From the NCBI GenBank assembly GCA_963796455.1, contig CAWCLO010000010.1, forward strand, positions 192,001-256,000: a stretch of DNA of 64,000 nucleotides, read 5' to 3'. The notes under the pieces are model-generated. The model made no database searches, had not been told where the DNA came from, and was given only the letters and a program-made list of their open reading frames with translations. The stretch comes from Candidatus Sulfomarinibacteraceae bacterium. Its GTDB lineage: Bacteria > Acidobacteriota > Thermoanaerobaculia > Thermoanaerobaculales > Sulfomarinibacteraceae. Positions within the stretch are counted from its first letter, which is position 1, and each line of letters starts with the position of its first letter. Below are positions 10,174-60,458 of the stretch, piece by piece. The position numbers and the translations under genes are program-made.

Positions 10174-10370
10174 CAGACGCCTCTCTCACCGCTGCAGGCG
10201 GGGATGGAGTCAGCTCCGTTGACGAGCCGCATCGAGGGAGGCAAAAATGCCATCCATCTATTCTATCTGCCGGGTCAAGGAATCTCCGAATTTTGGCTCG
10301 GAGGGCCCTCTCACACCGGTTGGATTGTGATGATTGTTACAACGCGCAGCCAACACCGGTCAGCATTCCT

Positions 10371-10752
10371 GTCCAAGACAGCTTCTTGTAAAGCTTTCAG
10401 GGACAGCGTCAGCAAACAGCGGTCAGCGTCAGTTTTCAGCCATCAGCGACAGCGAACAGCACTCATTTCTTCGGGTTCAACAGCCGCCAGGTCATGGCAC
10501 GGACCTGATCGAAGGCCAGCATCGCTTCACTGGCTCGATCCCGGCTGATCGCACCGGCGTGAGCGAGAAGCTTTAAGTGGTCGCCCACCGGCTACCCCTT
10601 CTGTTGAACGACCCGGAGGTGGCCACATCATCGCCTGTACTCCTGATCGCTGCCGCTGCTCTCCGTCGCTGAACACTGACCGCTGTCCCTGTTCGCTGTT
10701 GTCTGTCGCTGACCGCCGACCCTGATCGCTGTCACTACCGCTGCAATTCGGG
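10371..10752 (-). mobile_element. Copy 1 of the four-helix-bundle-associated repeat element (internally deleted)
   Basis: GTCCAAGACAG left end, CAGCGA-rich arm, 3' gene fragment, leader half GAACGACCCGGAGGTGGCCA, TCGCTG-rich arm, GCTGCAATTCGGG right end; all shared with 18568..19293. Confidence 0.7.
10463..10579 (-). pseudogene. 3' remnant of a four-helix-bundle protein gene
   Basis: Translates HLKLLAHAGAISRDRASEAMLAFDQVRAMTWRLLNPKK*, matching the C-terminus encoded at 18671..18790. Confidence 0.85.
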
Positions 10753-10844: not shown

Positions 10845-10917
10845 GCCCGCAGATCACGCAGATTGACACAGATAAGAAGAAGGAATCCATCTGCGTCTAT
10901 CTGCGTGATCTGCGGGC
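10845..10917. repeat. Long palindrome GCCCGCAGATCACGCAGAT...ATCTGCGTGATCTGCGGGC
   Basis: 19-bp perfect outer stem with an extra inner CAGAT/ATCTG unit, followed by a T run; a half copy lies at 30891..30917. Confidence 0.8.
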
Positions 10918-18377: not shown

Positions 18378-18567
18378 ACGTTCCCGAAACAGCCATATTG
18401 CAGGTCTTCTGCGGAAATTCGGCGCTTTTTTTACAATTTCGCAACCTTATCCCCTGGATACGGCTGTTTGGCCGATGAGTTTCCAGCCCGGACATCAAGT
18501 ACCCCTGCCATTTTGGCGCGGTTAGGCCACCGGCACCAGGCTCCCCTCACGACGAAAAACCCATCGA

Positions 18568-19293
18568 GTCCAAGACAGAGTCTCGGATAACGTTCAGGGA
18601 CAGCGACGGCGAACAATGGCCAGCGGCAGCGAACAGCGGCCGGGGCAGCGACAGCGTCAGCGAACAGCCCTTACTTGGTCGGGTTCAAGAGCCGCCAGGT
18701 CATCGCGCGGACTTGATCGAAGACGTTCATCGTTTCACGGGCTCCGTTCGGGCTGATCGCCCCGGCGTCGGCGAGGAGCTGCAAGTGGCTGTCGACCTCT
18801 TTCGCCGAGGCGTAGGCGATCCTCCAGTGGTTCGATCGGTCTCTACCGAAGCGGCCGTGCCCTTCAGCCAGGTTCGCGGGGACTGAACTTGCCGACCGGA
18901 TCACCTGATCGGCAATAGGCTTCAGCGGAGCGGGAACCCTCATCACGAGCTTGATCGCAATCCTGCTGCCTCGAGGGCCTTCGAGTGGGCAACGAGGTTG
19001 GTGTTCGTGGCGGCGTTGGACATGGTCACCTCCGGGTCGTTCATGCCCATACCCACAAGCCGGTGAGGCGGCCGATGTCAAGGATGCCCTGCACCCTGCC
19101 TGTCCTTGACATCGGCCGCCCACCGGCTACCCCTTCCTTGGAACGACCCGGAGGTGGCCATTTCGCCGACTGGACTGCTGATCGCTGCCGCTGATCACTG
19201 AACACTGATCGCTGTTCCCGGTCGCTGCTCCCCGTCGCTGGCGCTGGACGCTGTCGCTGTCCCTGGACACAGTGGCTGCCGCTGCAATTCGGG
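18568..19293 (-). mobile_element. Copy 2 (fullest) of the four-helix-bundle-associated repeat element
   Basis: Inverted CAGCGA/TCGCTG arms (CAGGGACAGCGACGGCG vs CGCTGTCGCTGTCCCTG) flank the gene and structured leader; ends shared with the other copies. Confidence 0.7.
18671..19023 (-). pseudogene. Four-helix-bundle protein (23S rRNA IVP / Avd-like, TIGR02436-type) with a 1-nt deletion near 18962
   Basis: GGAGGT RBS and ATG at 19023 give MSNAATNTNLVAHSKALEAAG; after the frameshift: IAIKLV...DQVIRSASSVPANLAEGHGR...WRIAYASAKEVDSHL, the family motif. Confidence 0.85.
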
Positions 19294-19335
19294 CACGGAT
19301 GCGGACGCGGTCTAGGAAACGGGCAGGGAAAGGGA

Positions 19336-30739: not shown

Positions 30740-31106
30740 GAAGGGGAAAGGGAGAAAGGGCGCAGGGGAGAAGGGGAGAGGCTCGTTCTGAGCTTTCACC
30801 AACCACCAGCTCTCGATAACAAAGCCGACCACAACTCTCTCAAAACCAGATCGCAGGAAACGGAGAGAGACACGGGTCAAATTATCCGTTATCTGCGTTC
30901 ATCTGCGTGATCTGCGGTTTCTCCGATGGCTGTGCACTCCAGCAACCGATGGTCGACCGGGACGAAAGAGAGTTCGGATTTCGGATTTCGGAATTGTCGG
31001 GCACTTTTCCAGAAAGAGAGGAGGTTGCGGAGAGGTGAGTGGTCTCCCTTTCTCCCTTTCTCCCCTGCTCCCTTTCTCCCTCTCCCTCTCCCTTTCTCCC
31101 TTTCCC
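30738..31106. repeat. Composite intergenic repeat with inverted polypurine/polypyrimidine arms
   Basis: GGGAGAAA-type units at 30738..30781, TTTCTCCC units at 31043..31106, internal ATCTGCGT decamers and TTCGGAT heptamers. Confidence 0.75.
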
Positions 31107-56204: not shown

Positions 56205-56221
56205 GATGGAAGCTTATCAGA

Positions 56222-56320
56222 GGCTGGGGGCTGGGGGCTTGGGGCTTGGGGCCTGAGGACAGGCGGAGGAGAAAGGGAGAAAGGGAGAAGGGGAGAGCGG
56301 GAGACGGGGAACGGGGAACG
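56222..56320 (+). repeat. G-rich heptamer and GGGAGAAA octamer tandem repeats
   Basis: GGGGGCT GGGGGCTT GGGGCTT GGGG, then GGAGAAAG repeats and two GGGGAAC units. Confidence 0.75.
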
Positions 56321-56329
56321 GCAGACAGG

Positions 56330-56595
56330 ATCGGCGTACAGAAGTCAGAGGCAGAGGCAGCGAACAGCACTCACTTCTTCGGGGCCCTGGCTTTTGTGGT
56401 GCGGCCGTATCGGCCGCACGGTGTGCAGGCGAGACGCCTGCACCACAACGGGCTGTTCCTTCTGTTGAACGACTCGGAGGCGGCCACGCCGTCGCTGCAT
56501 CTGATCGCTACCGCTGACCGCTGTGCCCTGTCGCCGTATCCGGTCCCTGCTCCCTGCCGCTGTAGCTGTCGCTGTCGCTGCCGCTGCAATTCGGG
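56330..56595 (-). mobile_element. Copy 3 of the repeat element, gene replaced by a REP doublet
   Basis: CAGCGAACAGCAC, last gene codons (PKK*), REP pair, TTGAACGACTCGGAGGCGGCCAC, TCGCTG arm, GCTGCAATTCGGG. Confidence 0.68.
56394..56448. repeat. REP doublet (REPIN-like)
   Basis: GTGG-TGCGGCCG-TAT-CGGCCGCA followed by inverted TGCAGGCG-AGA-CGCCTGCA-CCAC. Confidence 0.75.
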
Positions 56596-56617
56596 TACTG
56601 GGACGGAATCGAAGACC

Positions 56618-59993: not shown

Positions 59994-60043
59994 CAGCTCG
60001 ATACTCGATGCACGATGCACGATGCACGATGCTGGATGCCGGA
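59994..60043 (+). repeat. CGATGCA-type heptamer tandem repeat
   Basis: CTCGATA CTCGATG CACGATG CACGATG CACGATG CTGGATG; related copy at about 10789..10815. Confidence 0.75.
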
Positions 60044-60051
60044 TCACTCTT

Positions 60052-60405
60052 GTCCAAGACAGAGTCTCAGACAGCGACCGAGGACAGCCTCAGTGACCAG
60101 GAGTCGGCGGCAGCGACAGCGGACAGGGTCAGCTAACAGTCGACAGCGAACAGCGGCCGGGACAGCGAACAGCACTCACTTCTTCGGGGCTCCGGCCTTT
60201 GTGGTGCGGCCGTCTCGGCCGCACGGTGTGCAGGCGAGACGCCAACACCACCACTGCTGTTCCTTCTGTTGAACGACCTGGAGGTGGCCACTTCGTCGCC
60301 TGTACTCCTGACCGCTGCTGCCGAACACTGATCGCTGTTCACTGTCGCTGCTCCCTGTTCGCTGTTGGCTGACGCTGGACACTGTCGCTGCCGCTGCAAT
60401 TCGGG
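60052..60405 (-). mobile_element. Copy 4 of the repeat element, gene replaced by a REP doublet (60201..60250)
   Basis: GTCCAAGACAGAGTCTC left end as in copy 2; same PKK*/REP junction as copy 3; GCTGCAATTCGGG right end. Confidence 0.7.
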
Positions 60406-60458
60406 ATCGGGATCGGGATCGAAAAAACGGATGCGCTACGATCGCCCGCGGAGGTTCA

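Follow-up and report, generated by a model that had tools for sequence, protein, structure and literature searches.

MIC231, of the IS231/IS4 family, consists of IS4-family ends around a passenger gene, with no transposase inside, and has deleted derivatives. Passages of PMC2266710 describe the modularity of IS231 and its passenger genes, and MIC231 is mentioned in a passage of PMC6542083. For the IS4Sa subgroup, the row in Table 1 of PMC2266710 gives ends CA------T and DR 8-10. PF05635 genes are carried by the ORF-bearing intervening sequences (IVSs) of 23S rRNA (S23p; Coxiella, Leptospira), within complementary ends that form a long stem. The role of this 23S-IVS/S23p family and whether IVSs move are old open questions in the relevant part of PMC4990558, where the ideas that IVSs are remnants of transposition, or encode a component of mobility, are cited as old, untested hypotheses. 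Avd, of the DGRs, is described in part of bioRxiv 2023.10.23.563531 as a positively charged pentamer resembling S23 proteins, and the family is mentioned near cas genes, in DGRs, and as strain-specific genes in passages of PMC3936711, PMC10053308 and PMC8700078. The literature that we covered on the gene family and its mobility, with most subscription journals outside that coverage, describes no cassettes such as those reported here.

The DNA considered here, called the window, is a 64,000-nucleotide stretch whose source assembly (G000) has 5.02 Mb in 10 contigs and is 90.5% complete. The window contains four copies, A to D, of a small transposase-less element that the genome has in about 240 copies, about 60 of them with an intact, strongly conserved gene of the PF05635 family, the IVP gene. 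Our preferred reading, which we consider probable while well short of certain, is that the element is a transposase-less cassette with IS4-type ends, making 9-bp target site duplications (TSDs) and likely spread in trans by an IS4Sa-like transposase, and that inside it lies a separate hairpin core. Purifying selection would act on the gene of this core, probably for the reason that its protein, a predicted pentamer, binds the core's own hairpin.

Like MIC231 and IS-derived MITEs, the element has IS4-family ends round a passenger gene, no internal transposase, and deleted derivatives. It is unlike IS231, which has CAT ends and 10-12 bp duplications, in that its ends are IS4Sa-like and its TSD is 9 bp; and it is unlike MIC231 in being present in about 240 copies, in having a hairpin-wrapped cargo gene that appears to be selected in about 60 of them, and in that the same cargo occurs in ISL3 shells within the genus. 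With IS4Sa elements, whose NF033592 transposase has a DUF4372 domain, it shares the CA------T ends, the 9-bp TSD, and terminal inverted repeats (TIRs) near-identical to those of three loci discussed below (L030, L091 and L131), but neither the element nor the assembly has their transposase gene. The PF05635 gene within complementary ends forming a long stem, here a predicted one, is common to the element and the IVSs of 23S rRNA, but the element lies outside rRNA, is dispersed in intergenic spacers, and is bounded by IS ends and TSDs; its gene is conserved, whereas the ORF of the Coxiella IVS is reported to be decaying and is probably untranslated. Avd has the same fold (TM 0.79-0.82 to 4DWL and 8UB7 chains) and likewise a structured nucleic acid, here a predicted one, beside the gene, but identity is 9-11%, sequence searches give no match at E up to 5, the genome yielded no RT, and there is no adenine excess. 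As in REPIN-RAYT systems, copies C and D and some 74 loci hold a doublet of palindromes that, in this genome, also flank the gene of a REP-associated tyrosine transposase (RAYT), but here the doublet is nested in an IS4-ended cassette at a fixed junction and travels with it.

What this brings to the old questions is a gene of the family in a defined unit of about 850 bp whose ends and target are known. A congener has a candidate transposase, about 60 intact alleles supply natural variation, and the gene-less copies serve as natural controls, so that the protein's part in movement or conversion is open to direct experiment. Two aspects were unexpected, namely that dozens of redundant passenger genes in a non-autonomous element should be so strongly constrained, and that the shell should apparently have been swapped between two IS families inside one genus.

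Ends, targets and the four window copies

A blastn search of G000 with the four window copies as queries gives 252 merged loci, 238 of them scoring at least 90 bits and 14 below that. This is far above chance expectation, and answers the suggestion in the original prediction that a genome-wide search be made for further copies. A near-full PF05635 gene is present in 65 of the 238, a partial gene in 40, and none in 133; complete copies are about 850 bp long. All four window copies are members of this family, are present at the positions first given for them, and contain no transposase, integrase or RT, as had been said. Their common orientation is real within the window but is a matter of chance and no property of the family, the 238 loci being divided into 119 per strand.

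Comparing the flanks of 40 long copies, we find 19-bp TIRs, the left being CACTCTTGTCCAAGACAGA and the right, read inward, CACTGCTGTCCAAAACAGA. The ends proposed from the window alone were wrong on both sides. The left end is 7 nt further out, with the TIR at 10364, 18561 and 60045, and the true right end, an inverted repeat of the left, is about 110 bp past the right-hand motif GCTGCAATTCGGG, a motif which was itself correctly recognized (its ends are at 10752, 19293, 56595 and 60405). Allowing up to 3 mismatches, the ends form 69 pairs, of which 60 are left-right pairs less than 1 kb apart (341-887 bp), and the interior of these 60 is the IVP gene, its remnants, or the REP doublet, with no transposase. 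Identity between the two flanks of the 60 pairs is maximal at 9 bp, where it is 0.81 versus 0.53 with shuffled partners. The target consensus is ATGCWGGAT, which is supplied by the GGATGCT arrays of the genome. A 2-bp (AT) or zero-length target duplication, an idea prompted by these heptamer arrays, was rejected because targets outside the arrays show 9 bp, the 18 pairs located there having a 9-bp flank identity of 0.70 versus 0.31 when shuffled (the best of 200 shuffles reaching 0.49). Perfect TSDs are found in 7 of 28 to 8 of 26 full elements. Mismatches may come partly from chimeric ends or slippage of the arrays, which weakens the TSD as an age clock. In one copy (G000:C7:133820-134343), the interior is turned round with respect to the ends.

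All four window copies are defective relics, and the right TIR is absent from each of them. In copy B, the left TIR (18561..18579, + strand) is of IS4 type, with ends as in the autonomous elements L030, L091 and L131, and is decayed, with mismatches at 4 of 19 positions. It is followed by the arm downstream of the gene (18580..18670, + strand), which is CAGCGR-rich and which fold prediction pairs with the other arm. The four-helix-bundle gene (18671..19023, - strand) matches the PF05635 and TIGR02436 profiles, as expected from the first reading, and its fold is predicted by a structure model of an intact copy; it encodes 117 aa when intact, and the copy in B, which had been taken as full-length, is broken. 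One base is missing at about 18960, and the start ATG at 19023 and the gene body are in different frames. The 150-aa ORF at 18671-19123 has a false start, the real start being the ATG at 19023. The base lost in B is present in other copies (contigs from other sequencing runs), and the loss may be real or an assembly error. Beyond the leader, copy B has the TCGCTG-rich upstream arm, GCTGCAATTCGGG and a hexamer run (19161..19310, + strand), and is without the subterminal stretch of about 100 bp and the right TIR of complete copies. The CAGCGA and TCGCTG arms common to the four copies are borne out, as is the leader motif, which lies at 10606, 19141, 56467 and 60271.

Copy A (10364..10752, + strand) has the left TIR with 3 mismatches, the arm, and the final ~118 nt of the gene (10463-10580), which are fused to the outer half of the leader. 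Next to it are two CGCAGATYACGCAGAT repeats in inverted orientation (10848-10914, the repeat being found also at 30916), belonging to another dispersed family with about 120 motif matches in the genome. Copy C (56330..56606, + strand) has lost both TIRs and retains the arms and the last codons, with a REP doublet (about 56396-56448) replacing the gene. Where its left end would be expected (56220-56330), there are GGGGCTT and GGGAGAA tandem arrays, which recur at 31064 and 33833 and have 44 and 142 motif matches genome-wide; spacers with these arrays collect several repeat families. Copy D (60045..60417, + strand) has a perfect left TIR (60045-60063), the arms, and a REP doublet (about 60201-60253) replacing the gene. 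Beside it is a GATGCWS heptamer array (60007..60044, + strand), of the kind that the shell prefers as its target.

The original prediction of a mobile element, present as full-length and MITE-like copies, draws support from the TIRs, the 9-bp TSDs, the 238 loci, and the spacers between degP and the GGDEF gene in relatives, a locus that had been put forward for comparison. The IVP element is absent from this spacer in 16 of the 16 relatives examined (15 have no match, and G004 has a 56-nt arm-like match), which are about 80% identical, with spacers too diverged to display the exact target in single copy. Sites shared with relatives were considered as proof of inheritance and rejected, repeat hot spots being sufficient to explain them. 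Among 22 orthologous gaps, G000 has its element in 10, versus a background of 9.8%. We take these gaps to be general hot spots because the enrichment extends to three of the four other repeat types tested (4, 5 and 2 of 22 versus 3.9, 6.0 and 3.7%, with the fourth type in 0 of 22).

Autonomous relatives of the shell and the REP-bearing form

An exact search of 185,579 genomes with the 17-mer of the right end found at least 118 stretches, and 117 loci were looked at. Among the matches listed, two are whole insertion sequences, L030 of 1344 bp and L091 of 1409 bp, each having both ends and 9/9 TSDs. Their transposases score 240 and 259 bits to NF033592 (cut-off 115), and have DUF4372 and DDE_Tnp_1 domains and the Y-R-E-K motif in sequence. 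The congener G017 has an IS4 transposase element with matching ends (L131). Autonomous elements of the IS4 family (IS4Sa-like), with ends almost identical to those of the cassette, are thereby known from other phyla and from one congener. Placement in the IS4Sa subgroup is by ends, TSD and size only. As judged from these ends, the shell belongs to a known kind, the mobile insertion cassettes, and its way of moving is ordinary; mobilization by an unknown mechanism, as first proposed, is unsupported for the shell, whose ends match those of transposase-carrying elements, an outcome that the original prediction had itself named as refuting.

Because searches of G000 by tblastn and with PF14294 and NF033592 gave no cognate transposase (in an assembly 90.5% complete), and one was found in just 1 of 25 genus genomes (G017), it is from the ends that we infer mobilization in trans. 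Other mobilizers were considered for G000 and rejected. The single PF01609 transposase (C7:291107) has different ends. For ISL3, there is no ISL3-type end, no AACGTT array and no PF01610 match. RT- or DGR-type mobility was set aside in that G000 has no RVT_1 match and the gene copies have no adenine-specific variation, with 377 changes at 83 A sites, 566 at 113 C sites, and 448 at 104 G sites. IS4-type ends are also found in related genomes around elements of 139-388 bp with palindromic non-coding cargo and no IVP gene (L108, L022-L024, L027, L033, L037, L055).

Gene-less copies had been described as deleted derivatives, and copies C and D are more than plain deletions, a REP doublet standing in the gene's place. 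The same is found at 74 of the 133 gene-less loci. Among 84 short motif loci, some of which are free REPs, the left junction is common to 55 and the right to 66. The same palindromes are found on both flanks of a RAYT gene, L198 (NF047646 at 80.6 bits, cut-off 80). G000 has six Y1_Tnp matches (L193-L198), and the REP palindromes beside L197 differ from those beside L198 but are related to them. REP-bearing copies with both TIRs number 23, of which 7 have perfect TSDs, as compared with 7 of 28 full copies. In a poorly resolved tree of the shell, gene-bearing and REP-bearing copies interleave, with 12 changes versus 16.8 when shuffled. We infer that the REP form arose by a single replacement event and afterwards reached as wide a spread as its gene-bearing counterpart, in which case the protein would not be needed in cis for movement of the shell. 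Spread of the REP form by conversion and not by transposition could also be the case, because of that interleaving on a poorly resolved tree.

These results lead to a proposed history of the shell that rests on direct sequence evidence and in which, taken together, we have high confidence. A miniature shell derived from IS4 would have captured the core once, in an ancestor of the copies in G000 and the congener G006. Amplification in trans would have followed, by a transposase now lost or unassembled. A RAYT-type REP doublet would then have replaced the gene once, with deletions and the REP replacement giving rise to gene-less forms that would also have spread.

The hairpin core and its other shells

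Between the TIRs, the order is repeat arm, double palindrome, gene, and complementary arm. The whole element is predicted to form one long hairpin with z -10.0 (0 of 20 shuffles). The double palindromic leader (19023..19160 in copy B, - strand) has a predicted fold with z -7.6, in which the GGAGGT ribosome site beside the ATG pairs with an upstream copy of itself. In copy B, the outer stem joins 19023-19042 with 19141-19160 and covers that site, and the inner stem joins 19059-19084 with 19103-19127 and has TTGACA on both arms. The fold is supported by covariation in a set made of copy B and 41 of the 53 leaders extracted from metagenome relatives, where 97% of cells pair and both sides have changed in 19 of 39 pairs (0 of 500 shuffles; slid controls are at most 48% paired); with the structure predicted from the same alignment and the sequences related to one another, this is support and not a probability. 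A DNA palindrome fits the leader as well as an RNA stem, because most of the changes are Watson-Crick swaps. As modeled, the leader would hide the ribosome site, which counts against our preferred reading.

Mismatches in the inner stem (alignment A2) are mostly A-C on the gene strand, in about 18 cells versus 3 that are G-U, and the opposite strand would give G-U pairs. A conserved TA is 16-17 nt from the outward-facing TTGACA of this stem. The inner stem hints at an antisense RNA, in sequences that are not independent. A promoter scan found no sigma-70 site, and Rfam returned miRNA-hairpin chance matches far under the gathering score. The sequencing runs, with shares of at most 0.31 and a single RNA run whose reads cover the flank only, gave no sign that the gene is expressed, which, like the negative promoter scan, also counts against our preferred reading.

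The gene product matches PF05635 at 54.2 bits (cut-off 33.8) and TIGR02436 at 56.6 (cut-off 24), and intact genes encode 117 aa. The model of an intact copy has four helices with pLDDT 89.5 (the best of five models, made with no alignment). It matches 2GSC (TM 0.82-0.84) and 2RLD (TM about 0.8) with E down to 1.5e-5, and Avd 4DWL with TM 0.79, E = 0.07 and 10% identity. By analogy with 2GSC, 2RLD and Avd, the protein is probably a homopentamer.

Given the same protein family and the folding of the whole element into one long hairpin, the element might act as a 23S rRNA IVS does, lying in transcribed spacers and forming a long hairpin that RNase III cuts from the RNA, with the hairpin serving mainly to render the insertion harmless, and such excision is shown for the Coxiella IVS in part of PMC4990558. 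We regard this as very improbable here. The single 23S rRNA match in G000 is 3011 nt against a model of 2925 positions and has no large insert, and elements are enriched between convergent genes (82 of 606 convergent gaps versus 102 of 2818 tandem gaps), with 20 antisense and 11 sense among the full copies in tandem gaps, counts that rest on gene calls made for this analysis. Furthermore, an IVS-like role would leave the TIRs, the TSDs and the selection on the protein without an explanation.

The core is present in 14 of 18 congeners, where it is found in more than one shell. Among 51 congener loci, picked by hand from the best matches, 30 have an ISL3-type end, 3 an IS4 end (all in G006), and 18 neither. 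Many of the ISL3-type loci have 8-bp duplications in AACGTT arrays, and the genus also has autonomous ISL3 elements bounded by the same ends (L279, L282). Among 80 metagenome loci, 39 are ISL3-type, 5 IS4, 13 neither, and 23 too short to score, hence 13 of 57 scoreable loci have neither. In a tree of 66 genes, which took in 12 of the 54 clean copies of G000, the IS4-shelled genes are one group (100/98) among ISL3-shelled and shell-less ones, three named rows being near-identical to G006 copies and so not independent. In the same tree, genes mostly cluster by genome and not by site. The direction of the shell swap, from the position of that group, would have been into IS4, a polarity that depends on the midpoint root. 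The inner GCTGCAATTCGGG motif was considered as a relic ISL3 end, which we do not claim, as it is a resemblance only and is absent upstream in the G006 copies.

The occurrence of the same core with IS4, ISL3 or no shell argues for the main rival of our reading, which is that the core is itself selfish. The protein would act in cis to help an intact core overwrite other copies, in a homing-like biased conversion via arms and leader, or to enter new sites, and the IS shells would be vehicles captured repeatedly. The protein has the fold of Avd, whose part in DGR homing is played together with an RNA according to part of bioRxiv 2023.10.23.563531, and the clustering of genes by genome, with copies that are mosaic, fits as well. 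However, no RT was found in G000 or in 14 of 25 genus genomes, some of them with many copies, there is no excess of changes at A, gene-less copies are more numerous than intact ones, and scans of the congener and metagenome loci found for the shell-less cores no convincing TIR or TSD of their own. We think this rival unlikely but worth keeping in sight. We know of no catalytic motif in the four-helix fold, which also counts against it.

In the congener G017, L282:948-3186 is an intact ISL3 element with AACGTT-array targets that adjoins an IVP core with one ISL3-type end, and the two could be a composite unit. In some relatives, further palindromic repeats are inserted in the upstream arm of the core (L003, L020, L168-L169, L180, L227), indicating that the arms tolerate nested elements.

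Constraint and exchange among the gene copies

Gene copies in G000 differ by a median of 10%, and nearest neighbors by a median of 20 of 330 nt, so there has been no recent burst. The pN/pS ratio is about 0.17; when pairs are binned, five bins have values of 0.15-0.22, and the six pairs that are closest (less than 12 of 330 nt apart) reach 0.30. Nearest neighbors have pS 0.165 and pN 0.028. Across 65 copies there are 0 stops in codons 3-112, where a rough neutral estimate is about 57. A stop at codon 113 occurs in one copy and frameshifts in five, and a further copy is apparently out of frame at the start; broken copies in the genome have indels and not internal stops. An earlier test, in which singletons appeared neutral (pN/pS 0.82), was abandoned on account of saturation among the synonymous alleles (172 of about 253 seen), and was replaced by the pairwise comparison and by a comparison with dead remnants. 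That control used 36 of 38 remnants, 2 being too short, and remnants with a common deletion are not independent. Over the same codons, remnants and full copies have pS 0.120 versus 0.123, pN 0.048 versus 0.025, private missense changes 55 versus 10.7, and stops 3 versus 0. This suggests that the resident intact copies are under constraint.

The gene might instead be an ordinary passenger, with the constraint inherited from a diverse donor pool selected elsewhere and the intact copies being younger insertions that decay neutrally. Full shells are slightly nearer to the majority sequence (median 0.080 versus 0.125, p 0.064), and may be somewhat younger, in agreement with this; otherwise they are not clearly younger, with p of 0.064, 0.25 and 0.81 for full versus other copies on three measures of shell divergence. 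The highest pN/pS falling in the six closest pairs, and 5 or 6 of 65 copies being frameshifted, also agree with it. What makes it improbable to us is the nearest-neighbor distance, which leaves no room for a recent burst, and the five-fold fewer private missense changes, and no stops, in full copies as compared with remnants of equal pS. The TSD mismatch is also the same in full and gene-less copies (71 elements with both ends, p 0.92), but TSD mismatches may not measure age.

Conversion between copies is indicated by the decay of linkage between variable positions, where r2 is 0.127 for distances within 10 nt and about 0.025 for those beyond 60 nt (permutation p 0.002). Under the reading that we prefer, resident copies would swap sequence by gene conversion, and selection would purge expressed copies of missense and nonsense alleles but would tolerate silencing deletions. 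The protein would be an Avd-like nucleic-acid-binding pentamer acting on the core's hairpin, a role that we draw from fold and anatomy. The purging of damaged alleles together with tolerance of silencing deletions would be expected if mutant subunits spoil a hairpin-binding pentamer. We give these two steps, jointly, slightly less than an even chance.

The same data bear on the selfish core. It is difficult to see how selection at the level of the host could act on each one of about 60 redundant copies, and at one site common to two relatives (one pair), the gene has diverged faster than its upstream neighbor (pS 0.233 versus 0.131) with pN still 0.045. Another pair, L005/L167, was left aside here, as a gap made its dN/dS unusable. 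In its fullest form, the IVP core with its arms, covarying double palindrome and Avd-fold gene would be a parasite of transposons, captured by miniature shells of unrelated IS families, and the gene would be kept intact at dozens of resident sites through its protein, which would bias copying or conversion by an action in cis on the hairpin of its own core. We are doubtful of this form too, to the same degree as of the rival set out with the shells. If it were true, the 23S-IVS protein family would gain a role in mobility, and Avd would be an offshoot of such elements.

Another transposase was seen at locus L001 (1290-2670 and 3080-3469), where a DUF772/DDE transposase with its own inverted ends lies between two direct copies of another repeat. 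The fragment adjoining it is presumably from an IS110 transposase.
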